Shown piece after piece: positions 16,866 to 55,340 of a stretch of DNA of 64,000 bases. The stretch's first letter is position 1; each line of letters begins with the position of its first letter. The notes below the pieces were generated by a model. It saw nothing but the letters and a program-made list of their open reading frames with translations, was not told where the DNA came from and did not search any database. This stretch comes from Syntrophales bacterium (lineage in GTDB: Bacteria > Desulfobacterota > Syntrophia > Syntrophales > JADFWA01): assembly GCA_030655775.1 (NCBI GenBank), contig JAUSPI010000213.1:263-64262 (forward strand), in the 5' to 3' direction. Both the position numbers and the translations under genes were made by a program.

Positions 16866-16909
16866 AAGACACCTCTTTTTTGTGTTTAAACTTCATCTGT
16901 CTTTAAGCC

Positions 16910-17211
16910 AAGACTTTTGAAAACAAAAAATATTCTGAGTCTCAAAAAACCATATTTTGAAGCTCCCCGCAACAAGCTGAGGGGAATCTCCGACTTCCAA
17001 GTAACTTAAATTCGCAAATGTGTTGCAAGTAGTTAACATTTCTCAATATCTGCCAGAAATAACGCATTTGTTAAAAACATAAGTTACTTCCAATTATAAT
17101 GCCGCAAAGTGGCATAGTGAGCTGTTAAGGAAAAATGTTTATTTTATTTGCTCGCTAACCCCGCCGCAAGCAGCGGGGAATGATGTGCTCGCTATTCAGT
17201 TCAAAGCTCTT
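16910..17211. mobile_element. MITE (GAGACCTTTG-type TIR) carrying a nested IS200/IS605-type hairpin element
   Basis: TIRs AAGACTTTTGAA / TTCAAAGCTCTT; 5-bp duplication AAGCC (16905-16909, 17212-17216); internal hairpins at about 16964-16988 and 17159-17179. Confidence 0.75.
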
Positions 17212-17421
17212 AAGCCGGCTATTGAGGATAAATTACCTTCTTTTCCCAACCCTGTCAATGGTTTTGATAGGCACATGCCGGTACAAGTATTGCCAGGTGA
17301 TGGAGCTTGTGATTTTACTTTACCAGTTTTTAAAACGGGTCTTTTTTCCAAACTTTTTTTATGGTATAGGGAAATACTTTGTAACAGAATTAAAAGAAAA
17401 TCAGGAGAGGAGAACAAGTAG

Positions 17422-18351
17422 ATGAGAAGAAAGGTTTCTGTTATCGGATCTGGTTTTGTCGGTACCATGGTTGCTCAGAGAATAGCAGAGAAGAATCTGG
17501 CAGATGTTGTCATTGTTGATATTATAGAAGGGCTTCCTCAGGGTAAGGCCCTTGATATCTCACAATCAGCATCGCTTGAAGGGATTGATGTTAAAATAAC
17601 AGGCACAAATGACTTTTCTGAGATAAAAAATTCTCGGATTATTGTGGTTACAGCAGGGCTTGCCCGAACACCCGGAATGACCCGCGAGGAACTGGCCGGA
17701 AAAAACGGAAATATCATAAAATCGGTAACGGAGCAGATAAAAGAACATGCTCCCGAATGCATTATTATTGTGGTTACAAATCCGCTTGATGTCATGACCC
17801 AGCTTGCCTGGAAGGTTTCAGGATTTCCTGCACGGAGGGTCGTTGGCATGGGGGGAATTCTCGACACGGCGAGATATAAGTTATTTCTGGCCGAGGAGCT
17901 GAATGTGTCAATAAGAGATATTCAGGCCCTTGTGCTGGGAGGTCATGGGGATGCAATGGTGCCGGTTGAAAAATATACAACACTAAACGGCATTCCAATC
18001 AGCGGGCTTATAAAACCCGAAAGGCTGCAGGCCATTATTGAAAGAACAAAAAACGGCGGGGCCGAGATCATCAAGCTCCTGAAAACTGGCAGTGCCTGGC
18101 ATGCCCCCTCTTCTTCCGTCATAGTGATGGTGGAAGCGATACTTATGGACAGCAAGAGAATGCTTCCCGCAGCGGTCTATCTCGAAGGTGAGTACGGTAT
18201 AGATGGTATTTATATTGGTGCCCCGATAACGTTGGGTGCAGCGGGTGTAGAGGAAATACATGAAATAGACCTTCCTGACGATGAATTGGCCGCCCTCAGC
18301 CTGTCAGCGGATGTTGTAAAGAAAACATTTGAAAGTTTGAATGTTCTATGA
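17422..18351 (+). CDS. mdh: Malate dehydrogenase (LDH-like, NAD-dependent)
   Basis: VIGSGFVG, TAGLARTPGMTR, VVTNPLD, LDTAR, LGGHGD. Confidence 0.95.
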   Translation: MRRKVSVIGSGFVGTMVAQRIAEKNLADVVIVDIIEGLPQGKALDISQSASLEGIDVKITGTNDFSEIKNSRIIVVTAGLARTPGMTREELAGKNGNIIKSVTEQIKEHAPECIIIVVTNPLDVMTQLAWKVSGFPARRVVGMGGILDTARYKLFLAEELNVSIRDIQALVLGGHGDAMVPVEKYTTLNGIPISGLIKPERLQAIIERTKNGGAEIIKLLKTGSAWHAPSSSVIVMVEAILMDSKRMLPAAVYLEGEYGIDGIYIGAPITLGAAGVEEIHEIDLPDDELAALSLSADVVKKTFESLNVL

Positions 18352-20882
18352 GCTCTAAACTGGATGAAGACATCTTTACCCTGGTTGAAAAACCGAGCAG
18401 GTATATCGGGGGAGAGGTAAATTCTGCGAAGAAAAATAAATCGGAGTGCAGACTGAGTTTTGCGCTTGCATTTCCGGATACCTATGAGGTGGGAATGTCT
18501 CACCTCGGTTTGCAGATACTCTATTCTATACTGAACAGCGTCCCGGAGATTTCTGCAGAGAGAGTTTACGCCCCCTGGCCGGACATGGAATTCCAGATGA
18601 GGAAAAACAATATCATGCTCTCCTCTCTTGAATCACGTGCTCCCTTGAAGAATTTCGATATCGTCGGATTTTCCCTTCAGTATGAACTGTCCTACACAAA
18701 CGTTCTGAACATGCTGGAGCTTGGGGGTATCCCGATATATGCCAGGGACAGGAAAAAGGAAACCCCTCTGGTCATTGCGGGAGGACCATGTACCTTTAAT
18801 CCCGCGCCGGTCACCGACTTTTTTGATGCCTTTGTCATCGGGGAGGGAGAAGAGGTGGTCATCGAAATCTCCCGCGCTGTGATTAAAGGTAAGAAAAGAA
18901 GGTACAGCAGGGAACAGCTTCTCGAGTCGATAGCCCAAATTAAAGGGGTTTACATCCCCGCCATACATACTAATGGGGAAAGAGTAAAAAAGAGGATTGT
19001 ACCCGATATTAACCAATGGCTAGTGCCCTTGAGACCGGTGGTTCCTTTAATGAATACGATTCACGACCGTGTTACCCTGGAGATAGCGAGGGGTTGTACC
19101 CGTGGCTGTCGATTCTGTCAGGCGGGGATGGTCTGGCGACCTGTCAGGGAGAGGACACCGGAAGTTCTGGGAAAGATGGCAGATGAGATGCTCTGTTCAA
19201 CAGGGCACAACGAATTATCACTCCTGTCGCTGAGCTCCGGCGATTATTCTATGATCGAATATCTCCTTCCCGAATTGATGAACCGTTATTATGATAAAAG
19301 AGTGGCTTTGGCTCTCCCGTCGATGAGGGTGGAGACCCTTACCCGGGAATTGATCGATGAGATAAAGCGGGTCAGAAAAACGAGCTTTACCTTAGCGCCG
19401 GAGGCAGGGACGCAGAGACTGCGAAACGTGATAAACAAGGGCAATACTGCAGAGAACCTTCTTACCACCACGAGAAATGTCTTTGGTGCGGGCTGGAGAT
19501 CAATGAAGTTGTATTTTATGCTGGGGCTTCCCGGTGAAAGGAAGGAAGACTTAAAGGGTATAGCTGACCTCGCATACCAGGTACTTCGAGAGGGGGAAAA
19601 CAGACGACAGGTTACAGTGAGCCTTTCCACTTTTGTACCAAAACCACACACACCGTTTCAGTGGTGCAGGCAGATAAGTCTGGAAGAGATACTGGAAAGG
19701 CAGGAGTTCCTTAAAAAGGCTATTCGGAACAGAAATATAAAGATAAAATGGCATGACGGACGGATGAGCCTCCTTGAGGGAGTCTTTTCGAGGGGAGACG
19801 AAAAGCTGGGGACCTTGTTGGAAAATGCCTTCCGCCTTGGATGCCGCTTCGACGGCTGGAGCGACCAGTTTAAGTTTGATCTGTGGGAAGAGGCCATGAG
19901 GGAGACAGGCATCAGAGTCGAGGATTACCTGCGGGAACGGCACATTACAGAGAGACTTCCCTGGGATCGAATAGACTGCGGTATAAGCAGGGATTTTTTG
20001 ACGAAAGAACTCCAGAAATCACTGGGAGAAGAATTGACGGCAGACTGCCGTTTCGGGGCATGCCATCAGTGCGGTATCTGTGACCATCATACAATAAGAA
20101 ACATTATAGCGAAGGACGATGCCGGCACCGTCGGAAAGCAAGAAGTAGGGCCGGCAAAAGAGAAATCCCCCAGGCAGCCAGAGAGATTGAGGATTAAATT
20201 TGCCAAGGAGGGAGTCTCCCGCCTTCTGTCCCATCTTGAGGTTTCCTCTGCGCTTAGCAGAGGAATAAAGAGAGGCGGCCTTTCCTTCATATATTCGAAA
20301 GGTTTTCATCCTCATCCAAAGATGTCCTTTACGTTTGCTACATCGGTAGGAATGGAAAGTCTGGGCGAGTATGTTGATATTCAGGTTGAAAGTCCGGGAG
20401 AAAATATTAAAAATGTCGTTCAAAATATAAATTCCTTCCTCCCTTCCGGGTTAAGAATTCTTAATGTCAGAGAAATACCGCCGGATACCGATTCATTGTC
20501 CAAGGTTATAAAGGGGTTCAAATATGAGGTTGTTCTTCCCGAGAAAATCCCTTTGGAAAAGGGGAGATTGTTAGATGAAAAGATAGAAACCTTCTTTAAG
20601 TCGGATGAGTTTATTATATTACGGGAAAAGAAAAGAAAGCAGACGAGAAGAAACATACGTCCCATAGTCAACACACTTTTTTTCGACAGGGAAGACAGCA
20701 GGATCAAAATGTCGCTGCTGTTCGGAAAAGACGGGGGAGTTAAACCATCTGAAATACTCGTAGAGGTTCTTGGCATGGGCAGCGATTTAGCAAAGATGGC
20801 ACGGACAATAAAGACTGACACCATCTTTCATGACAGTTCACAGGATATTTCCGAAAAACGGCATTTACAGGCAGCCGGTTAA
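18348..20882 (+). CDS. TIGR03960-type radical SAM protein fused to a TIGR03936/DUF2344-type C-terminal domain
   Basis: FPDTYEVGMSHLG, ARGCTRGCRFC (CxxxCxxC), C-terminal LSHLE...GFHPHPKMSF. Confidence 0.88.
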   Translation: MSSKLDEDIFTLVEKPSRYIGGEVNSAKKNKSECRLSFALAFPDTYEVGMSHLGLQILYSILNSVPEISAERVYAPWPDMEFQMRKNNIMLSSLESRAPLKNFDIVGFSLQYELSYTNVLNMLELGGIPIYARDRKKETPLVIAGGPCTFNPAPVTDFFDAFVIGEGEEVVIEISRAVIKGKKRRYSREQLLESIAQIKGVYIPAIHTNGERVKKRIVPDINQWLVPLRPVVPLMNTIHDRVTLEIARGCTRGCRFCQAGMVWRPVRERTPEVLGKMADEMLCSTGHNELSLLSLSSGDYSMIEYLLPELMNRYYDKRVALALPSMRVETLTRELIDEIKRVRKTSFTLAPEAGTQRLRNVINKGNTAENLLTTTRNVFGAGWRSMKLYFMLGLPGERKEDLKGIADLAYQVLREGENRRQVTVSLSTFVPKPHTPFQWCRQISLEEILERQEFLKKAIRNRNIKIKWHDGRMSLLEGVFSRGDEKLGTLLENAFRLGCRFDGWSDQFKFDLWEEAMRETGIRVEDYLRERHITERLPWDRIDCGISRDFLTKELQKSLGEELTADCRFGACHQCGICDHHTIRNIIAKDDAGTVGKQEVGPAKEKSPRQPERLRIKFAKEGVSRLLSHLEVSSALSRGIKRGGLSFIYSKGFHPHPKMSFTFATSVGMESLGEYVDIQVESPGENIKNVVQNINSFLPSGLRILNVREIPPDTDSLSKVIKGFKYEVVLPEKIPLEKGRLLDEKIETFFKSDEFIILREKKRKQTRRNIRPIVNTLFFDREDSRIKMSLLFGKDGGVKPSEILVEVLGMGSDLAKMARTIKTDTIFHDSSQDISEKRHLQAAG

Positions 20883-21321
20883 TTGCGAAGTGCAACTGTA
20901 ATGGTCAGCATGTAGCTAAATCCCAACGACGCGCACTTCCCATTTTTTTTAGTTCAACTAATTCGGAATATATTACGAAATTATATGAATGTCAGGAAGG
21001 AAATATCGAAGAAGGTGACGATAAAATCGGCAAGAAGCCCAAAATTATGCTTGACAAATAACTGCTTGTGGGGAGATTATGCAAAATTGTACTGTATTTC
21101 CACAAGAACGAACAGAAACAGGCATGGTGTTTGAACACTTAAGTAATATTTAAGGGGGAAACCGTTTTTATAGCGTAAAGAAATCCCTGCAGTATATTTT
21201 CTTTTTGATCGTGGGTTCATTGTCACTTTTCTACAGTGATATATATTATGAGTCAGCAATCCTTTTTAAATCTTACTTATGATAACATTTCTTTTAAATT
21301 AATTCGAGAGACAAAAAAGTC

Positions 21322-21351
21322 TTGACAAATTGTATTTTATAATATTATCTT
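21322..21351 (+). promoter_or_regulatory. Sigma70-type promoter for the tRNA cluster
   Basis: TTGACA (21322-21327), 18 nt, TATCTT (21346-21351), about 40 nt before tRNA-Thr. Confidence 0.55.
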
Positions 21352-21389
21352 ACAAATTTCATGTTTGTTGGTCTGTCGTTTGGGAGATC

Positions 21390-21465
21390 GCTGGCGTAGC
21401 TCAACAGGTAGAGCAGCTGATTTGTAATCAGCAGGTCGCGGGTTCGAGTCCCATCGCCAGCTCCA
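21390..21465 (+). tRNA. tRNA-Thr(TGT)
   Basis: Cloverleaf; anticodon loop TTTGTAA; GGTTCGAGTCC T arm; CCA end. Confidence 0.97.
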
Positions 21466-21466
21466 G

Positions 21467-21551
21467 GGAGGGGTTCCCGAGCGGCCAAAGGGAGCAGACT
21501 GTAAATCTGCCGGCGGAGCCTACGGAGGTTCGAATCCTCCCCCCTCCACCA
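21467..21551 (+). tRNA. tRNA-Tyr(GTA)
   Basis: GGAGGGG/CCCCTCC acceptor, CTGTAAA loop, long variable arm, CCA. Confidence 0.97.
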
Positions 21552-21555
21552 TAAA

Positions 21556-21631
21556 GCGGGAGTAGCTCAGTGGCTAGAGCATCAGCCTTCCAAGCTGAGG
21601 GTCGCGGGTTCGAATCCCGTTTCCCGCTCCA
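21556..21631 (+). tRNA. tRNA-Gly(TCC)
   Basis: GCGGGAG acceptor, CTTCCAA loop, CCA. Confidence 0.97.
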
Positions 21632-21675
21632 TTTTATTTATAAAAATGATTGTCTGGTTTGTAGGGTAACAATTT

Positions 21676-21809
21676 GAGAGCTTTGCAAAACTGCAATTCT
21701 GGTCATTGCGAGGAGCTTTAGCGACGCGGCAATCTTATGAATTATCAATATGTTATGAGATTGCTTCGCTTCGCTCGCAATGACAATATTGGTATTATGC
21801 AAAGCTCTC
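21676..21809. mobile_element. MITE with GTCATTGCGAG-type palindromic cargo
   Basis: TIR GAGAGCTTTGCA / TGCAAAGCTCTC; duplication AATTT on both sides; internal GTCATTGCGAG (21702-21712) / CTCGCAATGAC (21774-21784). Confidence 0.85.
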
Positions 21810-21918
21810 AATTTGTGAGGGATGAGCAGGTATTCTGAAGGTTGGAGAATTTGTCTGATAGCCGATGCTGATCTGTACTTAGAGCTATTGTAAATTGCTT
21901 TTTAAATTTATTAATTTT

Positions 21919-21994
21919 GCCCACGTAGCTCAGTCGGTAGAGCACATCCTTGGTAAGGATGAGGTCACCAGTTCAATCCTGGTCGTGGGCTCCA
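21919..21994 (+). tRNA. tRNA-Thr(GGT)
   Basis: GCCCACG acceptor, CTTGGTAA loop region, CCA. Confidence 0.97.
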
Positions 21995-22016
21995 TTTTAG
22001 AGAGAGTTGGCTTGTA

Positions 22017-22166
22017 ATGAGAAATATAATTACGTTGGCTTGTACGGAATGCAAGCAAAGAAATTATACAACAACGAAGAACAAGAGAACGATGCAGGAT
22101 CGTCTTGAGTTAAAAAAATATTGTAAATTTTGCCGGGTCCACACTGTTCACAGGGAAACGAAGTAG
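22017..22166 (+). CDS. rpmG: 50S ribosomal protein L33 (zinc type)
   Basis: Own translation [49 protein letters not shown]; below the ORF-track length cutoff. Confidence 0.97.
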
Positions 22167-22294
22167 TTAACATGGGTTGCATCTTAGCAGAGAAACCGTT
22201 GTGTAAATCTTTTTTCGCTTTACCTGAAATGTTTTTTAATGATTCTAAGGCTTGGACAACATCCTGTTTTAAGGTAAACCCCATATACGGGTAC

Positions 22295-22372
22295 GGGCCA
22301 GTAGCTCTAATTGGATAGAGCGCCGGACTCCAAATCCGGATGCTGGGGGTTCGAGTCCCTCCTGGCCTGCCA
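22295..22372 (+). tRNA. tRNA-Trp(CCA)
   Basis: CCGGA-CTCCAAA-TCCGG anticodon arm, CCA end; typical position before secE. Confidence 0.95.
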
Positions 22373-22410
22373 TTTTTATTGTTACTGAAATGAATTCAGA
22401 ATAAGTATCA

Positions 22411-22602
22411 ATGAATAGAATACAAAAAATAAGACAGTTTTTGAAAGAGGCAAAGGTTGAGCTTAAAAAGGTTGTATGGCCGACACCAAAGCAGGCTTTC
22501 GCCTCCACGTCTATCGTCGTTATCCTCACTTTCATTGTGTCTATCTTTCTCGGCATCGTGGATTTTGGGCTTACTAAAATATTGAAATTATTCATGGGTT
22601 AA
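22411..22602 (+). CDS. secE: Preprotein translocase subunit SecE
   Basis: FLKEAKVELKKVVWPT plus a single transmembrane helix. Confidence 0.96.
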   Translation: MNRIQKIRQFLKEAKVELKKVVWPTPKQAFASTSIVVILTFIVSIFLGIVDFGLTKILKLFMG

Positions 22603-22606
22603 ATAT

Positions 22607-23137
22607 ATGGCCTTTAAATGGTATGTCATTCACACATATTCGGGGTTTGAAAACAAGGTGAAGCTTTCCATGCAGGAGAGAATAGAAACTGCTGGTATGC
22701 AGAAGTATTTCTCTGATATTCTTGTGCCTGAAGAGGACGTCGTCGAACTGGTTAGCGGGAACAAAAAAACCTCCAAAAGGAAATTTTTCCCCTGTTATAT
22801 ACTTGTGAGAATGGAGATGAACGATGAAGCCTGGCATATAGTGAATAATACTCCTAAAGTTACAGGATTTGTCGGAAGTAAAGATAAGCCGACTCCGATA
22901 CCGGATGAAGATGTTGAATTACTGAAGACCAGGATAGATGAAGGAACCTTGAAACCGAAACCCAAATATGAGTTTGAAGTTGGAGATCAGGTCAGAATTA
23001 TAGACGGTCCATTTACGAACTTTGACGGGATGGTTGACGAGGTTAAACCAGAGAAGGGGAAATTAAGAGTTATTGTTAGTATTTTTGGTAGGTCAACGCC
23101 TGTGGAATTAGATTTCATACAGGTTGCCCAGAATTAA
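22607..23137 (+). CDS. nusG: Transcription termination/antitermination factor NusG
   Basis: KWYVIHTYSGFENKV, KOW motif FEVGDQVRIIDGPF. Confidence 0.98.
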   Translation: MAFKWYVIHTYSGFENKVKLSMQERIETAGMQKYFSDILVPEEDVVELVSGNKKTSKRKFFPCYILVRMEMNDEAWHIVNNTPKVTGFVGSKDKPTPIPDEDVELLKTRIDEGTLKPKPKYEFEVGDQVRIIDGPFTNFDGMVDEVKPEKGKLRVIVSIFGRSTPVELDFIQVAQN

Positions 23138-23139
23138 AG

Positions 23140-23226
23140 TGCCTAAAATGCCTAAAGTGAGCTAAAGTGCCTAAAGTTAAAAAATGTTGTCCATAACTTT
23201 AGTTCACTTTAGGCACTTTGCACTTC
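23140..23226. repeat. Inverted degenerate tandem-repeat array between nusG and rplK
   Basis: Repeated AAAGTGCCT-like units followed by inverted ACTTTAGGCACTTT units. Confidence 0.7.
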
Positions 23227-23250
23227 AAACTTGAAATTAGGGTGATCATA

Positions 23251-23676
23251 ATGGCAAAAAAGGTTATAGCAAGCATAAAACTTCAAATTCAGGCGGGGAA
23301 AGCTTCTCCGTCACCACCTATAGGGCCGGCCCTGGGTCAACATGGAGTAAATATTATGGAGTTCTGCAAGGCATATAATGCCATGACGCAGAACCAGGAA
23401 GGAATGGTTATACCCGCACTAATAACTGTATATGCTGATAGATCCTTTACATTCGTTACCAAAACGCCGCCGACTTCTGTTCTTCTCAAGCAGGCAGCCA
23501 AAATAGCGAAGGGGTCCGGAGATCCAAAAAGAGAAAAGGTAGGGACAGTAACAGCCAAACAGGTGAAGGAGATTGCCGAGTTAAAATATAATGACCTGAA
23601 TGCCCTGGATATGTCGGGAGCTGAAAAAATTGTGAAGGGAACGGCAAGATCAATGGGAATTGAAATTGCAGAATAG
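23251..23676 (+). CDS. rplK: 50S ribosomal protein L11
   Basis: MAKKV...[21 protein letters not shown]; start at 23251 (track start too early). Confidence 0.98.
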
Positions 23677-23692
23677 AAGAGGTTGAACGACA

Positions 23693-24397
23693 ATGCCTAA
23701 GGAAGGTAAAAGTTTTTTAAAAGCTAAAGAGAGGGTTGAATCTGGAAAGAAATATGTTCTGAAGGAAGCTTTGGAACTGCTTGTGAGCACCTCGAGGGTA
23801 AAGTTTGATGAAACTGTCGATGTAGCTATCAGGTTAGGTGTGAATCCAAGGCATGCCGATCAGATGGTTAGAGGAAGCGTGGTTCTTCCTAACGGCTTGG
23901 GGAAGTCTGTAAGAGTGTTGGTTTTTGCAAAGGGTGACAAAGAAAAGGAAGCTCTTGATGCAGGAGCTGATATTGTTGGCTCTGATGACATAATTGAAAA
24001 AATAAAAGGGGGTTGGTTTGAGTTTGACAGAGTTGTTGCTACACCTGATATGATGGGTAGTGTGGGAAAACTTGGGAAACTCCTAGGCCCGCGTGGGTTG
24101 ATGCCGAATCCGAAAGTTGGTACAGTAACCTTTGATGTAGGAACAGTTGTAAAAGAACTCAAGGCGGGCAAGATTGAGTTCAGAGTAGAAAAAGCAGGAA
24201 TTGTGCATAGTCCAGTAGGAAAGGTTTCTTTTGGGGTAGATAAATTATTGGAAAACATTTTAACATTAGCAGAAACTATCGTGAAACTGAAACCGGCATC
24301 GAGTAAGGGAACTTATCTGAAAAACATATCACTTTCTACCACTATGGGTCCAGGGATAAAGGTGGATCCCCTGAATGTCAGAAATCTTTTCATATGA
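23693..24397 (+). CDS. rplA: 50S ribosomal protein L1
   Basis: KFDETVD...[26 protein letters not shown]. Confidence 0.98.
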
Positions 24398-24481
24398 TTA
24401 TTAATACTCGGCTGTCAGCGAAGTGGAGAAACTTTGTTTCTGCCAAGAGCTTTCAGTTGGGTATTGATATCTGATAAATAA

Positions 24482-24537
24482 GTCAGAGACAGCGGGTACA
24501 GGATGTTTAAACGATTTGAATCGGCCTGCCGAGACGA
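24482..24537 (+). promoter_or_regulatory. Probable L10 leader (rplJ autoregulatory RNA)
   Basis: GTCAGAGACAGCGGGT...GGCCTGCCGAGACG resembles the L10-leader kink-turn consensus; lies in the rplA-rplJ gap. Confidence 0.55.
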
Positions 24538-24646
24538 TTGGTTAGTTCAATGTTTCTTCCTGTATGCATCTCTGATTTTCAAACTAAATCCTTACTTTAT
24601 AGTGAGGTTTTTTGGAATTCAGAATAAGAAAGGAGGCTAGAAATAG

Positions 24647-25159
24647 TTGGATCGAAAAACTAAAGAGCTGGTTGTTGCTGATCTTCATGATAAAATTAAA
24701 GATGTTAAACTGGCGGTTCTGGTGGATTATAGTGGTTTAAATGTTGAGCAGATTACCTCATTAAGAAATGAGCTGCGTAAATCCGCGACCGAGTTAAGGG
24801 TGTCAAAGAATACCCTTCTTGGAATCGCTTCTAAGGGTACCGATTTTAGTATTCTTGAAGAGTATTTCAAGGGGCCGCTCGCCATTGCCATGAGTTATGG
24901 AGATGAAATTGCGCCGACAAAAGCACTGGTTAATTTTGCCAAAGGGAAAAATACGCTGGAAATTAAGGCCGGGATGTTGGAGGGCAAGTTTTTAAGTAAG
25001 GAAGAGATAGGTGTTCTGGCTGCGCTTCCAAGCAGGGATGTTCTTGTTGGAAAGCTTCTCTCCATACTGGTAGCAACACAAGCTTTGCTGGTTAATGTGC
25101 TAAATGGTGTTCCGAGAAGCTTTGTTCAAGTTCTTGATGCTTATCGGGTAAAGAAATAA
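24647..25159 (+). CDS. rplJ: 50S ribosomal protein L10
   Basis: TTG start after AGGAGG; VDYSGLNV...LR..LR, KNTL, LPSRDVL. Confidence 0.96.
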   Translation: MDRKTKELVVADLHDKIKDVKLAVLVDYSGLNVEQITSLRNELRKSATELRVSKNTLLGIASKGTDFSILEEYFKGPLAIAMSYGDEIAPTKALVNFAKGKNTLEIKAGMLEGKFLSKEEIGVLAALPSRDVLVGKLLSILVATQALLVNVLNGVPRSFVQVLDAYRVKK

Positions 25160-25183
25160 AACATACAGGAAGGGATTAGAAAA

Positions 25184-25618
25184 ATGGCAGATGAAAAGGT
25201 AGAAAAAGAGAAGGTAACAAAAGAGAAAACAACAAAAGAGAAAACAACAAAAGAAGATGTTATAAAATTTATTGAAGATATGACAGTTCTTGAGTTGTCA
25301 CAACTCGTAAAGGAATTGGAAGAAAAGTTTGGTGTGTCCGCGGCTGCGCCAGTGTCTGTCGCTGCTGTGGCTCCAGGGTCAGAACAGGTAGTCCAGGAAG
25401 AAGAGAAGAGTGAATTTGATGTTATACTCTCCGGTTTTGGTGACCAGAAGATCCAGGTTATAAAGGTTGTCAGGGCCTTGACAGGTTTGGGATTGAAAGA
25501 AGCTAAAAATTTGGTAGATGGTGTGCCGAAGCCGGTTAAAGAGGCTGTTTCGAAGGATGAGGCTGATAATGTTAAGAAGAAACTGGAAGAGGTAGGAGCC
25601 AGCGTGGAGATTAAGTAA
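25184..25618 (+). CDS. rplL: 50S ribosomal protein L7/L12 with N-terminal repeat expansion
   Basis: [42 protein letters not shown]. Confidence 0.98.
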
Positions 25619-25622
25619 GTTA

Positions 25623-25755
25623 AAGCATTTAGCGTTCAGCAAGCAGCTGTCAGCTATGATGAAAAGCGATTATTCAGTTCAAGAGGAGTTTGAGGGGGAA
25701 TGTTTCGTATAATCCCTGTTATTGCTAAAAGCTGAAGACTGATAGCTAAATGCTT
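25623..25755. repeat. Inverted heptamer-repeat array between rplL and rpoB
   Basis: AAGCATTTAGC / GCTAAATGCTT inverted repeat with 7-nt periodic units (CGTTCAG CAAGCAG CTGTCAG; GCTAAAA GCTGAAG ACTGATA). Confidence 0.6.
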
Positions 25756-25772
25756 ACAGATGAAGGGGAATT

Positions 25773-44637: not shown

Positions 44638-44652
44638 ACTGAGGAAGAATGA

Positions 44653-45521: not shown

Positions 45522-45628
45522 CAACGAAACGAGGGTAAAAATGGATAAGCTTCCAACAGTCAGCACTTAGCCTTTATCACATTTTTAGTCGAGAAACTGA
45601 ATGCTTATAAACATTAAGGAGATGCAGT

Positions 45629-46030: not shown

Positions 46031-46127
46031 TACCTCAAATTTTCATTCTTAATCTGTTTTGGTTCCGGCTTGCCCGGACCGGGAAGTGCGATAGTTGTTA
46101 GCTATCCTGAAATCTGGAGATTTATAA

Positions 46128-46667: not shown

Positions 46668-46731
46668 CGCAAAAGTCCAAAGTTTTAGGTTGTTCTTATG
46701 AGGACTTGAAACTCGATATAGAGGTAGAACG

Positions 46732-47097
46732 TTGGTATCTAAAAAAATAATAGGAAATAGAATTAAACGTAAGAAGAGAGTAAGGGGAAAGATTTTTGGC
46801 ACTCAGGAGAAACCACGTCTTTCTGTATTTCGGAGTTCGAAGCATATATACGTACAGGCAATTGCTGATGATTTGGGGAAGACCATAGCTGAAGCCTCAA
46901 CCCTTAGCAAGGAATTGAAGGGAAAGCTTGAAGGACTGAAGAAGACAGATGCTGCTCGTGAGGTAGGCAAATTGGTAACCGAGAAATTATTGTCCGATAA
47001 TGTGAAAAAGGTTGTCTTTGATAGGGGGATGTTTCTTTACCATGGACGTGTAAAAGCTCTTGCTGAGGCGGCTAGGGAAGCGGGGTTGAAATTTTAA
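46732..47097 (+). CDS. rplR: 50S ribosomal protein L18
   Basis: [30 protein letters not shown]. Confidence 0.98.
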
Positions 47098-47171
47098 TTG
47101 ATCGATCTTTTTGCTGGTTTAATTGGTATACACTAATCGATGTTTTTAGTTTTTAGGGGTATTGCAGGAAT

Positions 47172-47651
47172 ATGGAAGAATTAGAACTTCTTGATAGGGT
47201 TATTGCTATTAAGCGGACAGCCAAGGTTGTCAAAGGTGGCAGAAGATTTAGATTTAGTGCAGTTGTAGTTGTTGGTGACGGTAATGGTTCTGTCGGTGTT
47301 GGGTTGGGGAAAGCCCATGAAGTCCCGGAGGCAATAAGAAAGGGTATGGATGAGGCTAAAAAGAATCAAATGAAAGTTGCAATTGTGAACAGAACCGTAC
47401 CTCATGAAGTGATAGGACACTTTGGGGCCGGGAAAGTTCTCCTCAAGCCGGCTTCCGAGGGGACAGGCCTTATAGCTGGTGGGGCTGTTAGAGCGGTTTT
47501 GGAAGTTGCTGGTGTTCATAATATATTAACAAAATGCCTTGGTTCACATAACCATCATAATCTTGTCAAAGCAACGATTGACGGACTCCGTAAGATGAAA
47601 ACACCCGAGAAGATCGCCGCTCTCAGGGGAAAAGATATTTCCGAAATTTGA
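47172..47651 (+). CDS. rpsE: 30S ribosomal protein S5
   Basis: [22 protein letters not shown]. Confidence 0.99.
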
Positions 47652-47673
47652 CGTTTTCGTTAGCGTATAGAAC

Positions 47674-47775
47674 GAGACCTTTGAAAAATTGAAAAATATG
47701 TTTTGAGAGTGAATTGAGACATAAAATTGTCAAAAGATCTTTTGGGCATCGAAAACCCGTATTTTCGGAACTTTC
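47674..47775. mobile_element. MITE inserted between rpsE and rpmD
   Basis: Left TIR GAGACCTTTGAAAAA, degenerate right TIR, duplication AGAAC (47669-47673, 47776-47780); internal sequence similar to 54309. Confidence 0.75.
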
Positions 47776-47793
47776 AGAACATGGGAGCAGGTC

Positions 47794-47985
47794 GTGGAAA
47801 AGAAACTGAAGATAACATTGGTAAAGAGTTTTATAGGAAGACCGGAAAAACAGAGGAAAGTACTGCGCGGGATGGGACTCGTAAAGTTGAATAAAACCGT
47901 CTTGCTGGACGATACTCCTGCGATTCGTGGGATGGCAAAAAAAGTCACGCATCTGGTTACCGTAGAGGAAATTGAGGTAAATTAA
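47794..47985 (+). CDS. rpmD: 50S ribosomal protein L30
   Basis: [29 protein letters not shown]. Confidence 0.97.
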
Positions 47986-47987
47986 AT

Positions 47988-48428
47988 ATGGATTTGAGCA
48001 GTTTAAAACCACCTGAAGGTTCCAGAAAAAAGAGAAAACGGGTAGGTCGCGGGGCTGGATCAGGTCATGGAAAAACATCGTGCAGAGGATCGAAAGGGCA
48101 GAAATCCCGTTCGGGTGGAAGAGTGAGACCAGGATTTGAGGGCGGCCAAATGCCCCTTTCGAGGAGATTACCGAAAAAGGGGTTTTGTAATATCTTTAAA
48201 AAGGATATCGTCGCAGTAAATATAGAACAGCTGAACAAATTTCCAGAGGGTTCGGTTATTGATTCAAATATTCTTATAAGTAGTGGGATTATTAAGAATA
48301 AAGGTGATGGAATCAAGATATTGGGTAAAGGGTCTATAGATTATCCTTTGTTGCTGAAAGTTGACAGAATAAGTCGCGGTGCAAGAGAGAAAATTGAGAG
48401 TGCAGGCGGTTCGATAGAGGTTATCTGA
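47988..48428 (+). CDS. rplO: 50S ribosomal protein L15
   Basis: [29 protein letters not shown]. Confidence 0.99.
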
Positions 48429-48429
48429 G

Positions 48430-49737
48430 TTGTTAAGCGGCCTTAAAAATATCCAGAAAATCCCGGAGCTTCAGAAGAGAATACTCTTCACTTTTTTTCT
48501 GTTGGCTGTTTACCGGATAGGTGTACATGTGCCAACTCCGGGGATCGATACGGCGGCTTTAATGGCGTTCTTTGAGCAGGCAAGGGGTTCACTTCTGGGA
48601 CTCTTTGATATGTTTGCAGGAGGGGCACTGAGCAACTTGTCAGTCTTTGCCCTGGGTATTATGCCCTATATCAGCGCATCCATTATTTTGCAGTTGCTCA
48701 CAGTTGCTATTCCTTATCTTGAAAAGCTTTCTAAGGAAGGAGAAGTCGGAAGAAGAAAAATAACGCAATATACGAGATATGGAACGGTTCTTTTAAGTGT
48801 AATTCAGGGGTTCGGTATTGCGGTAGGATTGGAAAACATGGCAGGTCCTACGGGTGTATCTATCGTGATTGATCCAGGATGGGACTTTAGATTGATGACG
48901 GTTATTACCCTTACCGCCGGTACTTCGTTTATCATGTGGTTAGGAGAGCAAATTACTGATAAGGGTATTGGTAATGGGATATCTCTGATCATCTTTGCGG
49001 GTATAATATGTCGAGGGCCAGCTGCTGTTTTAAATACCTTTCGCCTACTGTCCACAGGTGAGATGGGAATATTTTTTGTTATCATCCTTGCCGTAACGAT
49101 GGTCGCGGTTGTTGGTATTATTGTCTTTGTGGAAAGTGGGCAGAGGAGGATACCAGTTCAATATGCCAAGAGGGTTGTTGGGAGGAAGATGTATGGTGGA
49201 CAAACGACCCATCTTCCTTTAAAGGTTAATACAGCAGGTGTAATTCCACCCATATTTGCTTCCTCAATCATAATGTTTCCTGCTACAATTGCCAATTTTA
49301 TTCCACATCCCTGGATGAAGATGGTGGCGGATGTATTGATGCCTGGAAGAGTTGTGTATGAATTGCTCTATGTAGCGTTTATAATATTTTTCTGCTATTT
49401 TTATACTGCGGTTACTTTTAATCCTGTCGATGTGGCCGATAATATGAGAAAGCACGGAGGCTATATTCCGGGTATAAGACCGGGTAAAAAGACAGCAGAT
49501 TATATAGACAGTATCCTGACAAGGCTTACCTTCGGTGGTGCCATGTATGTTTCTGCAGTATGTGTACTGCCGAGTATTCTTATAAGTAAGTTTAATGTGC
49601 CGTTTTACTTTGGTGGTACAGCGCTTCTTATTGTAGTGGGTGTTGCCCTTGATACGGCAGGTCAAATAGAAACCCATTTATTGACGAGGCAATATGAAGG
49701 ATTTTTGAAAAAGGGACAGATGGGCAGAAGACGTTAA
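48430..49737 (+). CDS. secY: Preprotein translocase subunit SecY
   Basis: [34 protein letters not shown]. Confidence 0.99.
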
Positions 49738-49750
49738 AAGGTTAAAATTG

Positions 49751-50500
49751 ATGATAATCTTGAAATCTCCTGACGAGGTTGAAAAGATAAGGGCAAGTGA
49801 TGTTATAGTAGCGAATATATTGAATGAATTGAGAGGTATAATTAAACCTGGCATAACAACCATAGAGCTGGACAGGTATTCTGAGGAACTTGCCCTGAAA
49901 ATGGGTGCTAAACCGGCCTTTAAAGGGTATAGAGGATATCCTTTTTCTCTGTGTACGTCTGTTAATGGTGAAGTAGTTCATGGAATGCCGTCAGATACAG
50001 TACTTAAGGCGGGAGACATAATAAGCCTCGATTTTGGAATATATCATAAGGGATACTATGGAGATTCTGCCATAACTGTTCCTGTAGGTGAGGTTTCCAG
50101 TGTAGCGCAGGCACTGATTGGAACTACTGAAGAAGCCCTGTACCGTGGGATAAAAGAGATGAGGGCAGGAAATCGATTGGGTGATATATCAGCTGCTGTG
50201 CAGGAGTGTGTTGAGGCTGCCGGGTTTTCTGTGGTGAGAGATTTTGTAGGTCACGGGATAGGAAGAAGTCTTCATGAAGAGCCACAGATCCCCAATTTCG
50301 GAGTGCGTGGTAGGGGTGTTAAGTTAGAAGTAGGTATGGTTTTTGCGATTGAACCAATGGTGAATGAGGGAACATACAAGGTAAAGGTATTGGACGATGG
50401 ATGGACGGTTGTGACAGCCGATGGTAAGCTGTCAGCCCACTTTGAGCATTCTGTGGCAATTGCAGGGGATGGTCCAGTAATATTGAGTAAGATTGACTGA
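49751..50500 (+). CDS. map: Type I methionine aminopeptidase
   Basis: SVNGEVVHGMP, DFG...YYGDSA, GHGIG.SLHEEP, EPM, AHFEH. Confidence 0.98.
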   Translation: MIILKSPDEVEKIRASDVIVANILNELRGIIKPGITTIELDRYSEELALKMGAKPAFKGYRGYPFSLCTSVNGEVVHGMPSDTVLKAGDIISLDFGIYHKGYYGDSAITVPVGEVSSVAQALIGTTEEALYRGIKEMRAGNRLGDISAAVQECVEAAGFSVVRDFVGHGIGRSLHEEPQIPNFGVRGRGVKLEVGMVFAIEPMVNEGTYKVKVLDDGWTVVTADGKLSAHFEHSVAIAGDGPVILSKID

Positions 50501-50655
50501 TTGTAACTACTCAGGTATGAGTAGTTACCAGGGACAAAGTACCAAAGGTTCACCCTGTTAAATACGGTTCCCCTTGGGAAATTTAACAGGGCAGGCAGAG
50601 GCATAAAGAAAGAAAAGAGGCTCTCCCCTTTTTAAAGGGGGGTTAAAGGGGATTT
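50501..50655. repeat. Three stacked REP-type palindromes between map and infA
   Basis: GTAACTACTC/GAGTAGTTAC (50503-50528); CCCTGTTAAAT/ATTTAACAGGG (50553-50591); CCCCTTTTTAAAGGGG (50625-50640). Confidence 0.7.
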
Positions 50656-50698
50656 TGCAGAACATATTTATTAGATTTTGCGTGAGGATAGATGCTTC

Positions 50699-50917
50699 AT
50701 GGTAAAAGAAGAAGCGATACAGGTTGAAGGTAAAGTAATTGAGCCGCTGCCGAATGCAATGTTTCGTGTTGAACTGGAAAATGGGCATCGTGTTCTTGCC
50801 CATATTTCCGGGAAAATGCGTATGCATTATATCAAGATATTACCTGGTGATAAAGTGACCGTTGAACTTTCCCCATATGATTTGACGCGTGGGAGAATTG
50901 TGTACAGGGCAAAATGA
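50699..50917 (+). CDS. infA: Translation initiation factor IF-1
   Basis: [32 protein letters not shown]. Confidence 0.99.
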
Positions 50918-50940
50918 ATGCAGTTATGGGGTGAAGTATC

Positions 50941-51054
50941 ATGAAAGTGAGGAGTTCCGTTAAAAAGATATGTGATAAATGCAAGATTGTTAAAAGGCGT
51001 GGGGTGCTCAGAGTTATTTGTGAAAATCCCAGGCATAAACAGCGCCAGGGGTAA
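50941..51054 (+). CDS. rpmJ: 50S ribosomal protein L36
   Basis: Own translation [37 protein letters not shown]. Confidence 0.98.
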
Positions 51055-51184
51055 AGGGTGATATAAAAAAGGAGTCAGAAGTCAGGAGCCGGAATGAAGA
51101 AAAATATCCTGTTATCCTGAATTCTTTCTCATGATTCCTGAAATATCTTTTTTATAAATTATTTCCTACAGGAGGATATCGGGT

Positions 51185-51559
51185 GTGGCAAGAATTGCAG
51201 GTGTAGATTTACCTAAGAATAAGAGAATGGAAATTGCCTTGACCTATATATATGGTATAGGTAGATCTAAATCAAGGAAGATACTTGAAAAAGCAGGTGT
51301 AGAGTTTGATACAAAAACAGATAATATTGCTGATTCAGAGGTAACCTCAATAAGGAACATTATAGATAGGGACCATAAGATTGAGGGAGATTTAAGAAGA
51401 GAAATTTCCATGTCGATAAAACGCCTGATGGATATAGGTTCCTACCGAGGGCTGAGGCACAGAAAGGGTCTTCCTGTTAGGGGTCAGAGAACAAGCACAA
51501 ATGCCAGGACACGAAAGGGACCGAGAAGGGCTGTTGTCGGCAAGAGAAAGAAGAAGTAA
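51185..51559 (+). CDS. rpsM: 30S ribosomal protein S13
   Basis: [26 protein letters not shown]. Confidence 0.99.
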
Positions 51560-51597
51560 TTTGAAGGGGTCAAGTTTTAACCCCATCTGGAGGAACA

Positions 51598-51990
51598 ATG
51601 GCAAAACCGAAGAGGAAAGCTGGAAAAAGGAAAGAACGAAAAAATATACCGGAAGGCATTGCCCATATTCAATCGACGTTCAACAATACGATGATTACGA
51701 TTACAGATCTGAGTGGTAACGTTATTACCTGGTCTTCCTCTGGAGTCAGGGGTTTCAAGGGTTCGAGGAAGAGCACACCATTTGCCGCTCAATTAGCTGC
51801 AGAGGATGCCGTAAGAAAAGCAAAGGAACATGGGGTGAGAAGTGTTAAAGTATATGTGAAAGGACCTGGTTCAGGTCGAGAAGCCGCCCTGAGGTCTTTG
51901 CAGACGGCAGGTCTTGATATAAGTCTTATAAGGGATGTAACACCTATCCCTCATAACGGTTGCCGCCCACCGAAAAGAAGAAGAGTATAA
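51598..51990 (+). CDS. rpsK: 30S ribosomal protein S11
   Basis: [29 protein letters not shown]. Confidence 0.99.
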
Positions 51991-52037
51991 CAGAGGCTGA
52001 AGTTGAGCTTTATTACGATATAAAATGGAGGAATGTT

Positions 52038-52670
52038 TTGGCAAGATATAGAGGATCTTTATGTAGATTATGTCGAAGAGAGAACTTGAAGCTCTTTCTC
52101 AAGGGGGACAGATGTTACGGTGATAAATGTGCCTTTGAAAGAAGAGGGTATGCCCCTGGGGAGCATGGGCAGACGAGGGATAGGCGAAAACATTCCGACT
52201 ATGGTGTCCAGTTAAGGGAAAAACAGAAACTTAAAAGGACGTTTGGACTTTTGGAGAAGCAGCTAAGAGGGTATTACAAGAAGGCAGATAGGCAAACCGG
52301 AGTAACGGGAACAATCCTGTTGATTCTGTTGGAAAGAAGACTTGACAATATTGTATACAGGATGGGTTTTGCGAGCTCCAGAGGTGAAGCAAGACAGCTT
52401 ATAAAACATAATCATTTTTTGGTAAATGACAGAAAAGTTAACATCCCATCATACCTGATAAGCGTTAGTGATGAGGTTCAGGTTAGAGAGAAGAGCAGGA
52501 AGATGTCGCGAATATTAGATTCGATGGGGACAGTTGCGAGACGGGGTATCCCTCAGTGGCTGGAATTGGATAAAGATAACTTTAAAGGTGTTGTAAAGAT
52601 GTTTCCTGTTCGGGAAGAATTAACCATGCCGATTCAGGAACGATTGGTAGTTGAGCTTTATTCTAAATAG
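52038..52670 (+). CDS. rpsD: 30S ribosomal protein S4
   Basis: TTG start after GGAGG; [25 protein letters not shown]. Confidence 0.98.
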
Positions 52671-52720
52671 CGTGATAACCACGTGACGGTTAAAGTGACT
52701 CTATATAGGAAGTATAAGAA

Positions 52721-53731
52721 ATGCAAAAAAACTGGCGTAGTTTAATACAGCCGAAGCGAATCGAAGTAGATGAAAAAACCCACACTCGACTTTATGGGGA
52801 ATTTACCTGTCAGCCTTTGGAAAGGGGTTTTGGCATTACTTTAGGTAACTCTCTTAGAAGAGTGTTGCTGTCTTCCATACAGGGAGCAGCTATTGTTTCT
52901 GTGAAGGTTGACGGAGTTCTTCACGAGTACTCTACGATTCCTGGGGTGAAAGATGATGCGACCGATCTTATTTTAAACCTTAAAGGCATCCGTTTAAAAC
53001 TTCATGAAGATGGACCCAGAGTTATACATATTGATGCTTCAGGGGAGGGAGTTATAACTGCGGGGGATATCATTACAGATGGAACTGTTGAGATAATGAA
53101 TCCGGATCATTATATTACAACCCTCTCGGCTGATGCTGTGTTTAAGGCAGAAATGGTCGTGAAGATGGGTCGAAGTTATGTTCCCGCTAAAAGGGAGAGG
53201 GACCCTGACCAACCGGAAGGCACTATAAATATTGATGCGTTATTTTCACCAATTAAAAGGGTAAACTATACGATAACCCATGCCAGGGTGGGGCAGGTTA
53301 CTGATTATGATAGGCTGATATTGGAGGTATGGACCGATGGGAGTATTTTACCAGAGGATGCCGTAGCTTATTCTGCAAAAATATTAAAGGAACAGCTCAG
53401 TATTTTTATAAATTTTGAAGAGGAAGAGGAAGAGCAGGAAGAACATAAAGAGATCGAGGAAAAGGGGAAAATCAATCAGAACTTGCACAGGAGTGTTGAT
53501 GAGTTGGAGCTTTCTGTAAGATCTGCAAACTGTTTAAAAAATGCCGGCATTACTCTTATTGGAGAACTTGTTCAGAAGACTGAGACTGAAATGCTTAAAA
53601 CCAAGAACTTTGGAAGGAAGTCCCTGAGTGAAATTAAGGAAATACTTGCTGAGATGGGACTTGGACTCGGTATCAAGGTAGATTTTAAACTGCCGGTAAA
53701 ATATGATGAAGAAGAAGCTAAAGAAGTATAG
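52721..53731 (+). CDS. rpoA: RNA polymerase alpha subunit
   Basis: [37 protein letters not shown]. Confidence 0.99.
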
Positions 53732-53762
53732 TAGATTCATTAATTAGAAAGGAAGATGTTAA

Positions 53763-54140
53763 ATGCGTCACAGAAAGGCTGGGAGGAAGCTGGGTAGAAC
53801 CACGAGTCATAGAAAAGCGATGCTGAGAAATATTGTAACTTCCTTCATGAAGCATGAAAAGATCGTTACAACCGATGCCAAGGCAAAAGAGTTGAGGAAA
53901 ATTGCCGAAAAGATAATTACCTTAGGGAAAAATGACAGCCTCCACGCAAGAAGGCAGGTTCTGTCTTTTATAAGAGATCGGGCAGTTGTCAAAAAGCTTT
54001 TTGAAAAGCTGTCACCCCGTTACAGTGAAAGGGCTGGGGGTTATTCGAGAATAGTAAAGGTAGGTTACAGAGCAGGTGACAATGCCCCTATGTCTGTTAT
54101 TGAATTAATTTCAGAAGGAGACAAGAGACCCTCAAAGTAG
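53763..54140 (+). CDS. rplQ: 50S ribosomal protein L17
   Basis: [24 protein letters not shown]. Confidence 0.99.
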
Positions 54141-54195
54141 AGTTGGTACAGTACGTTTCAACCGCGGGAAAATAAGGAAATAAAAAAGTGTAAAA

Positions 54196-54233
54196 ATAAA
54201 AAGGCAAGGAATCTCACCCTTGCCTTTTTATTT
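54196..54233 (+). terminator. Rho-independent terminator after rplQ
   Basis: AATAAAAAGGCAAGG / CCTTGCCTTTTTATT stem with T tract. Confidence 0.85.
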
Positions 54234-54308
54234 GATCCATCAGTATCTTTTACGTTTTCCCTTGAAATTTTTCTTAAAAGAAATATAATAAGAAATCGTC
54301 AATACATA

Positions 54309-54391
54309 TAGACCTTTGAAAAACTGAAAAATATGGTTTTGAGGGTGAAAAAATGTTCTGAGTATTGAAAAACCATTTTTTCAATGCTTTC
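54309..54391. mobile_element. MITE (cargo-less, 83 bp)
   Basis: TAGACCTTTGAAAAA left end, degenerate right end, duplication ACATA (54304-54308, 54392-54396). Confidence 0.75.
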
Positions 54392-54493
54392 ACATAATGT
54401 ATTGATATATTGCGACATCTCGATGCATTTTAGAGAAGATTGTCTTATATCTTTTGAACCCTAATGTATGTGATGAGTAAGGGAGGATCAGTC

Positions 54494-54757
54494 ATGGCAG
54501 AGGAAAAAATTGGAGAGGTTGTTAAGTTTTTTGCTAAGCCAAGCGTTGCAGCGGTCAAGATTACTGATGGAGAGTTAAAAGTAGGTGATACGGTTAAGTT
54601 TACAGGTCATACCACTGATTTTGAAAGTAAAGTTGACTCAATGGAAATAGAAAACGAAAAAGCTGAAAAGGCAGTAACCGGTGATTATATCGGAATTAAG
54701 GTAACTGAGCGAGTTCGTCCTGGCGATGAGATGTTTAAGGTTGTATCAGAAGAATAA
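54494..54757 (+). CDS. Small stand-alone EF-Tu domain II-like beta-barrel protein (U32 peptidase C-terminal-like)
   Basis: IGEVVKFFAKPSVAAV...LKVGDTVKF.GHTTDF...VDSMEI...IGIKV.ERVRPGD; RBS GGAGG before the ATG at 54494. Confidence 0.8.
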   Translation: MAEEKIGEVVKFFAKPSVAAVKITDGELKVGDTVKFTGHTTDFESKVDSMEIENEKAEKAVTGDYIGIKVTERVRPGDEMFKVVSEE

Positions 54758-54998
54758 TTTGATGATGAGTTCATGGCGAAAGTCCAAAGGCGGTCAACTT
54801 AGAGTTGGCTAAGGAATTGATATTTAGAACAACCCACAGTGATCCTTATATTAACTTTTCCTGATCCATCTAAAAATCCAAGATTAATTTCTTAAATCGG
54901 AAATTTTCGGATTGAGGGTCATATTTTAAAATATAGTTAAGGGAAAGTGAATTTTGGCCAACATCTCTCCTGTTAAAAGTCTGGTTATTTGATAAGGT

Positions 54999-55129
54999 GA
55001 GACCTTTGAATTTTGCCATAAATAGCCTGAATGGTCATTCCCGTGCAAACGGGAATCCAGTATTTTAAACTTGTTATGGATTCCCACTTTCGTGGGAATG
55101 ACAGAAAGGGGGCGTTTTGCAAAGCTCTC
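54999..55129. mobile_element. MITE with dRS3-like cargo
   Basis: TIR GAGACCTTTG / GCAAAGCTCTC; duplication AAGGT; two ATTCCC-N8-GGGAAT units (55037-55056, 55080-55099). Confidence 0.85.
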
Positions 55130-55340
55130 AAGGTAGGGAGGTTGGGGAGCTATTTGTGTTTGTAGCTGCCTGAAACTGTGAGTCGGTGGCTTGATTTTTC
55201 TTTTGACGTTGTTATTTTTGTAAAAAATGTATAGCGAGCGAATTTAATAAAATTACTCTTTAATGCTTCGAAGAGCCCCCGCAGTGAGCTTATGGAAACT
55301 TCAATTTTTTATCCTAAAAAGCGTTAAAAGGAATCATTAT

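Follow-up and report, generated by a model that had tools for sequence, protein, structure and literature searches.

IS5-derived miniature inverted-repeat transposable elements of a Syntrophales genome, some of them carrying GTC-tagged hairpin pairs

[quoted passage not shown] The 12-nt terminus GAGACCTTTGCA has been published for ISNme1 and for BrickBuilt, and the latter has been described as a MITE that "trapped" and propagated an unrelated repeat (PMC4596501). Here, five elements, named c1 to c5, are analysed in a 64,000-nucleotide stretch of DNA, called the window, from a Syntrophales bacterium (GCA_030655775.1, contig JAUSPI010000213.1, positions 263 to 64,262 of the forward strand); the window is contig C217 of a 3.04-Mb assembly (276 contigs, 44% G+C, genome label G000), and other contigs of this assembly are numbered in the same way. 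These elements resemble the published MITEs in the 12-nt terminus GAGACCTTTGCA/TGCAAAGGTCTC and in being non-coding, intergenic and IS5-derived (PMC4596501). The cargo of BrickBuilt, however, is a 23- or 41-nt tandem repeat, whereas here it is a head-to-head hairpin dimer; duplications are irregular in BrickBuilt and a constant 5 bp here; and in the present genome one shell has several cargo types, and the same cargos also occupy a second shell.

The hairpins resemble a further group of described repeats. CGTC-tagged palindromes are abundant in many phyla and include dRS3/NTS of Neisseria and the Rickettsia palindromic elements (RPEs). Di Nocera and colleagues classed dRS3 as a CGTC-tagged repetitive extragenic palindrome (REP) that forms head-to-head dimers and has no associated transposase or REP-associated tyrosine transposase (RAYT) as partner; their 2013 survey described these palindromes as having no dedicated transposase, left the route of their spread open, and remarked in passing that some CGTC dimers lie inside longer palindromes (PMC3733652). 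It has been reported that the Neisseria NTS, CGTCATTCCCGCGMAVGCGGGAATCYRG, contains dRS3 (ATTCCC-N8-GGGAAT) and is the single-stranded DNA (ssDNA) target of the small GIY-YIG nuclease SsnA, that the ssnA gene is typically flanked by such hairpins, and that dRS3 acts as a phage recombinase target; this 2025 study presented such repeats as single-strand nuclease targets and did not explain their multiplication (PMC11893778). The ATTCCC units of the present genome are alike in the form (C/T)GTCATTCCCGCG-loop-CGCGGGAATCCAG, in being arranged as head-to-head dimers without a RAYT partner, and in flanking small single-domain GIY-YIG genes on both sides (PMC3733652; PMC11893778). The hairpins of this genome differ from the published repeats in that 276 of the 383 GTC-tagged hairpins counted here (~72%) lie within 50 nt of a MITE end, and in that the ATTGC and ATTTC variants have 5-bp stems and 11-18-nt loops and fail the published pattern for Ssn-related motifs (SRMs).

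QMITE2 of Coxiella burnetii, likewise a MITE, has inverted ends, direct repeats and a REP inside it, its shorter copies being bare REPs; it differs in that the REP is GTAG-tagged and a target of IS1111, in that duplications measure 7-11 bp, and in that the available part of that source names no autonomous partner (PMC5896051). REP doublets forming hairpins (REPINs) are comparable as two inverted hairpin repeats moving as one unit, but they are moved by RAYTs and have neither inverted IS ends nor duplications, whereas the elements studied here have IS5 ends, 5-bp duplications and no hairpin-flanked RAYT (PMC3116915). Trapped-repeat IS5 MITEs with this terminus, a REP-containing MITE (QMITE2) and CGTC dimers inside longer palindromes are already published. 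We found no description of dRS3/NTS-class dimers carried and amplified in IS5-type MITEs with proven recent movement, nor of the same hairpin modules common to two different shells.

The initial annotation of the window had reported five copies of a single MITE family with 5-bp target duplications. All five stand where it placed them, each flanked by identical 5-bp direct repeats, and they do share their ends; however, they are not a uniform family but a superfamily with at least four interior types. Similarly, the two copies that it called cargo-less, c3 and c4, do lack hairpins, but they are not empty and have a conserved interior of their own. The elements and their interiors are as follows, in window coordinates, with no strand assigned except where one is given:

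16910-17211 (16905-17216 with duplications): c1, flanked by AAGCC; its shell, 16910-16958 plus 17200-17211, is a hairpin-less IS5-MITE of the c4 type, interrupted by a nested element.
16959-17199, + strand: the nested element, E2, which starts GAAGCTCCCCGC and ends GCTCGCTATTCAG; it has two CCCCGC/GCGGGG hairpins, one close to each end and both in the same orientation, and no inverted ends.
21676-21809 (21671-21814 with duplications): c2, flanked by AATTT; a 134-bp MITE with perfect 12-bp ends.
21702-21784: interior of c2, a head-to-head dimer of GTC-tagged ATTGC/GCAAT hairpins at 21702-21733 (+) and 21760-21784 (-).
47674-47775 (47669-47780 with duplications): c3, flanked by AGAAC; an old hairpin-less copy that has diverged and whose right end is decayed.
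54309-54391 (54304-54396 with duplications): c4, flanked by ACATA; an 83-bp hairpin-less copy.
54999-55129 (54994-55134 with duplications): c5, flanked by AAGGT; a 131-bp MITE.
55034-55102: interior of c5, a dRS3/NTS-like head-to-head dimer of GTCATTCCCGTGCAAACGGGAAT at 55034-55056 (+) and GTCATTCCCACGAAAGTGGGAAT at 55080-55102 (-).

The five elements are real MITEs that have been mobile since the species of the genus diverged. Orthologous loci were found in four other genomes of the genus (G001-G004) by searching with the surrounding DNA and were then aligned. The c2 site is empty in G002, which has a single AATTT, and in G004, which has a single GATTT, and both keep the tRNA cluster around c2 without the insertion; the c4 site is empty in all four genomes, with a single GCATA; and the c3 site is empty in G001, with a single AGGAC, while c3 is present in G002, G003 and G004. 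Copy c5 is missing at the orthologous site in G002, G003 and G004, where the flanks are more diverged, and G001 holds a different, c2-type copy near this site. The orthologues of c1 in G002 and G004 are 84-bp hairpin-less elements that lack the 241-bp insert; what lies inside c1 (16959-17199) therefore entered an older copy at a later time. The comparison with related genomes, which the initial annotation had named as a check, thus yields precise empty sites in the case of four copies, c2 to c5, and of the insert within c1. Logan contigs of public runs end at these repeats, so they are uninformative on insertion polymorphism.

The elements are also non-autonomous derivatives of an IS5-family insertion sequence, with which they share only the ends. 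GAGASCTTTGMA fits both ends of c1 to c5, the match being 12/12 in c2 and ~9/12 at the decayed right end of c3. In this genome, a decayed IS on C229 starts with GAGACCTTTGCACAAC at position 590 and contains DUF772 and DDE_Tnp_1 fragments (matches to PF05598 and PF01609); its right end is decayed, a second, inverted copy of the GAGACCTTTGCACAAC-type end lies at 1-105, and a small GIY-YIG cassette (C229:~1000-1400), precisely inserted and bounded by ACCCAGTGAAAT inverted repeats, interrupts the transposase gene of the IS. Intact copies of the IS, 1.34-1.41 kb long with a transposase of 352-378 aa, are found in the related genomes G031, G010 and G021 and reach 168.8 bits against the NCBIfam model NF033581 "IS5 family transposase" (cut-off 140). 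Their ends are GAGACCTTTGCA and GAGAGCTTTGAA, reading GAGACCTTTGCACAAC... and GAGAGCTTTGAAGAATG... or GAGACCTTTGCATT..., and a MITE of G064 has 19 nt (GAGACCTTTGCACAACTCC) in common with the IS end of G010. The DDE transposase partner that the initial annotation had postulated thus belongs to the IS5 family and is decayed here and intact in relatives; its likening of the ends to one of an IS5-family Neisseria element, for which it had named IS1106, was essentially right, the same terminus being the one published for ISNme1 (PMC4596501). The other DDE_Tnp_1 genes of this genome have no convincing matching ends, a loose 10-mer scan giving chance hits only. A GTCATT located 18 nt from the right end of the G031 IS was taken as chance; it is missing from the G010 and G021 copies.

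Genome-wide, end pairs were collected with GAGASCTTTG at up to 2 mismatches and a spacing of 50-3000 bp, which gave 4865 pairs, and the same pairs with shifted flanks served as the control. Perfect 5-bp duplications flank 46 pairs, compared with 7 in the control, and 39 of the 46 span 81-302 bp; the genome has 82 occurrences of GAGAGCTTTG and 10-25 of most related 10-mers. By BLAST, full-length copies number 47 for the c2 type (21 at ≥93% identity and five at 100%) and 7 for the c5 type (71-100% identity); the c4 type has 3 uninterrupted copies and several interrupted ones; c3 has one distant relative; and the c1 composite is unique. In a 162-bp class of 7 copies, c2 is extended by a 28-bp G+C-rich mini-hairpin, at the same position in each, and the duplications differ among the three complete copies checked; a 132/133-bp class consists of diverged c2 relatives, and a 121-bp class, with arms GTCATTTCGA, is filled by an ATTTC...GAAAT version of the hairpin. 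The cargo-bearing forms are therefore multi-copy with independent duplications, the point on which the initial annotation had made its proposal depend. The smallest form is a 29-bp ends-only element, GAAACCTTTGAAAAATTTTCAAAGCTCTC (C111:14895-14923, duplication AAGAG), which may be a minimal transposable unit. Direct nesting was seen of a c5-type copy within a c2-type copy (duplication GAATT), of a c2-like within a c2-like copy, and of two elements with another type of shell, described below as shell B, within a c4-type copy (C234:37196-37665). Outside the genus, a single c2-type copy at G076:C171:11588-11721, in another family of the order, matches this genome exactly in its ends and spacers, which reflects either recent horizontal transfer or a mis-binned contig.

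Cargos c2 and c5 were described in the initial annotation as unrelated, namely a GTCATTGCGAG palindrome and a pair of ATTCCC units; they are instead two stem variants of one GTC-tagged hairpin-dimer architecture. The interior of c2 is laid out as GTC-ATTGC...GCAAT-CT and that of c5 as GTC-ATTCCC...GGGAAT-CC, both being head-to-head pairs of stem-loops in which GTC is an unpaired tag, and the stems covary: at a stem position, the combinations G-C, C-G and T-A occur 108, 69 and 32 times in the genome, and each mismatched combination at most 5 times. As single-stranded DNA, c2 folds at -34.5 kcal/mol (z = -7.1 versus shuffles) and c5 moderately better than its shuffles (z = -2.9); c3 and c4 fold no better than theirs.

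The motif definitions of dRS3, NTS (the 28-mer with up to 1 mismatch) and SRM (a degenerate pattern) were taken from PMC11893778. Both c5 units are exact dRS3, as the initial annotation had noted, and only near to the extended NTS: the first has 3 mismatches to the 28-nt NTS, two of which form a compensating stem pair, and neither passes the strict SRM pattern. The genome holds 55 dRS3 units, 13 NTS matches at up to 1 mismatch (0 in the shuffle) and 64 SRM matches (5 in the shuffle). As judged from their sequence, the ATTCCC hairpins fit Neisseria dRS3 and come close to NTS; other names for this class of repeat are CGTC-tagged REPs and Ssn-related motifs. The ATTGC hairpins of c2, which have the tag, tail and dimer layout in common with them, are not filed as SRMs because the published patterns fail and no cognate gene was found. 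A separate observation concerns a ~24-nt mini-hairpin, CTTGTCCTCGACYNGATCGGGGA, with 8 copies, every one of which sits within an ATTCCC hairpin loop or immediately next to such a hairpin, three c5-type copies among them (C169:8029, C234:15410(-), C231:20966 and 21017, and sites on C2, C102, C268 and C163); it looks like a tiny element specific for ATTCCC hairpins.

The same hairpins also occur in a second shell. Shell B has ends TGATGnnnTCGTAAAAAGTC and a 4-5-bp duplication (for instance, C121:9754-9871), and its ~150 paired copies make it more abundant than the IS5 shell (shell A); its interiors comprise at least seven kinds of GTC-tagged hairpin dimer as well as other palindromes. Hairpin units were assigned by distance, to shell A or shell B when they lay within 50 nt of one of its ends, or else to no recognised shell, with the following counts:

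ATTGC units (109): shell A 86, shell B 5, no shell 18.
ATTCCC units: shell A 13, shell B 23, no shell 21.
ATTTC units: shell A 3, shell B 3, no shell 16, and ten more in two other contexts.

Four more stem types are found almost only in shell B, and the ATTCTG type in no recognised shell. Where the stem type is the same, the two shells hold homologous interiors, the homology taking in the loops and the central spacer, and interiors homologous to that of c2 lie in shell B at C54:7830 and C166:1700. No autonomous shell-B element bounded by shell-B end pairs 600-3000 bp apart was found in this genome. In the window, half a shell-B end lies beside a CCCCGCCCACAGGGCGGGG palindrome at 14441-14545.

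The nested element E2 of c1 belongs to a family of ~50 copies, 44-257 bp long, with constant flanks, TT|GAAGCTCCCCGC...GCTCGCTGTTCAG|TTCA, and size classes of 44 (a single hairpin), 64, ~110, ~130 and ~240 bp (e.g., C205:28162-28400 and C193:3790-3833). The E2 empty site in G002 and G004 reads ATATTTTCAAAG. E2 has also inserted independently in G003, into the opposite end of the orthologue of c1 and into the left end of that of c3, which makes the TTTTCAAAG end of the hairpin-less MITEs a repeated landing site. The idea in the initial annotation that the shell serves as a landing pad holds in this sense, since E2 inserts repeatedly into ends of the MITE family; its idea that the shell vectors cargo probably holds for the multi-copy c2 and c5 composites but not for c1, which is unique and received its cargo after the shell was fixed. 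Unlike ends, subterminal hairpins, a fixed short target and no long duplication are features that match an IS200/IS605-type miniature element, an architecture that E2 fits as a candidate member. Both E2 ends occur near none of the nine Y1_Tnp loci of the genome, and a single loose left-end match near two of them; TnpB was not searched for. E2 resembles the IS200/IS605-derived miniature elements and the small nested repeats of Nostoc, the latter reportedly described by Elhai and colleagues in 2008, in its unlike ends, in one same-orientation hairpin per end, in the fixed target TT|TTCA, in deletion derivatives down to a 44-bp hairpin and in nesting within small elements. It differs from the IS200/IS605-derived elements in that no TnpA gene with E2 ends was found in this genome, a comparison in which TnpB was left aside.

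With respect to genes beside the hairpins, the genome holds six small GIY-YIG genes and one fragment. Two single-domain genes, C209:9266-9490 and C268:2471-2689, have ATTCCC hairpins on both sides, GTCATTCCCG...CGGGAATCCAG; a third, C149:9288-9515, has ATCCTG-stem hairpins around it; inverted repeats of other kinds flank two more; and one lies in an intervening sequence of 23S rRNA (C216:6328-6546).

Taken together, we consider it likely that the five elements are IS5-derived MITEs of which the c2 and c5 composites carry GTC-tagged dimers as passengers, multiplied by IS5 transposase in trans. The hairpin pairs would be passengers from the genome's pool of such hairpins, the same pool that flanks small GIY-YIG genes, and the dimers may owe their place in the shells to nested insertion or to deletion of larger composites. 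Ordinary DDE transposition at the ends, whether cut-and-paste or copy-and-paste, would be carried out in trans by IS5 transposase, and such hitch-hiking would multiply a repeat class without a transposase of its own. That GIY-YIG cassettes do enter this IS is seen from the one inside the C229 transposase gene. Several observations weigh against this picture. No capture event of the hairpin dimers themselves was seen. The c2 hairpins lie outside the published SRM pattern and match none of dRS3, NTS and SRM, and in this genome no GIY-YIG gene turned up with ATTGC or ATTTC hairpins at its flanks. Interiors of these two kinds look like diverged homologues whose stems changed in compensating ways, so that some of the variety could have evolved inside the shell. 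The junction that joins the IS5 end to GTCATT is of old date and wide distribution, being found in 59 of 151 genomes of the order and in 33 of 62 genera (one hit in a reversed-pattern control). Among the intact IS copies of relatives, perfect 5-bp duplications (TTTTT and AAATC) flank only 2 of 7, the copies L014 and L015, one further copy having 4/5. Finally, although five c2-type copies are 100% identical, the one IS5 of this genome that has matching ends is a broken copy, its right end decayed; the active source of transposase is therefore not in view, and it may be missing from the assembly, unassembled as is usual for metagenome-assembled genomes.

Part of this evidence points to a different history, in which the hairpin dimers are integral and ancestral to one MITE lineage, the stems diverged in place, and bare hairpins or those in other shells arose by decay or end replacement. 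The wide distribution of the end/GTCATT junction agrees with it, as do the strong stem covariation and the end-to-GTCATT spacers, which stay conserved from c2-type to 121-bp-type copies although the stems are different. However, all three stem types recur in shell B, with its unrelated ends and different duplication length; the same hairpins flank GIY-YIG genes without IS5 ends; hairpin-less subfamilies and the 29-bp ends-only element exist; and other elements are often nested directly in these shells. We regard this history as unlikely. A still smaller place is left for REPIN-like units moved as single strands by a RAYT of IS200/IS605 type, with the IS5-like ends incidental: the head-to-head dimers are REPIN-like and the genome has nine Y1_Tnp matches, but constant 5-bp duplications and inverted ends are marks of DDE transposition and not of IS200/IS605, none of the nine Y1 genes has GTC-tagged hairpins on both sides (a single unit lies ~0.9 kb from the match on C63), and CGTC-tagged REPs are reported without RAYT partners (PMC3733652), which makes this route very improbable. 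An ssDNA link to IS200/IS605 transposases does not suit the dimers, for which Ssn-type GIY-YIG nucleases are the fitting link. Its further suggestion, that the composites spread integration sites for filamentous phages or integrative and conjugative elements as dRS3 does in Neisseria, found no evidence: the identity of the ATTCCC units to dRS3, a phage recombinase target (PMC11893778), is all that speaks for it, and none of the three IS110/Piv-type genes (PF02371) is hairpin-flanked, a single tag match lying ~0.85 kb from the gene on C4, although filamentous prophages were not looked for. We hold this suggestion to be highly doubtful.

As for the setting in the window, all five copies are intergenic with respect to long open reading frames, and c2 lies between the third and fourth genes of a cluster of five tRNA genes (21390-22369). 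In an Rfam scan of the window, the gathering score was reached only by tRNAs and a group II intron and by none of the five elements; the intron domains are at 1180-1943 (RF02005, RF00029). A further end-like match at 63103 was rejected as a chance hit, its position being inside a coding region that reads by eye, with no family search, as cysteinyl-tRNA synthetase.

Returning to carriage of the dimers as passengers, a broader version of it can be offered tentatively, as one that may hold but is more probably too wide: DDE mini-shells, of the IS5 type and at least one other, would be the vehicle that multiplies the CGTC/NTS/Ssn hairpins, and the dimers would be gene-less remains of hairpin-ssn-hairpin units, serving as interchangeable modules between shells whose composites are then amplified. 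If this is true, resident Ssn nucleases would cut hundreds of transposon-borne sites in single-stranded DNA, tying the nuclease system to transposon dynamics. The presence of two of the three cargos, those of c2 and c5, as hairpin pairs in MITEs suggests a route for the spread of transposase-less repeats. This route is concrete and testable, with ~72% of the hairpins beside MITE ends, an IS5-family partner, constant duplications and empty sites in sister species, and the genome offers a natural system in which one shell holds several hairpin types and one hairpin type occurs in two shells.

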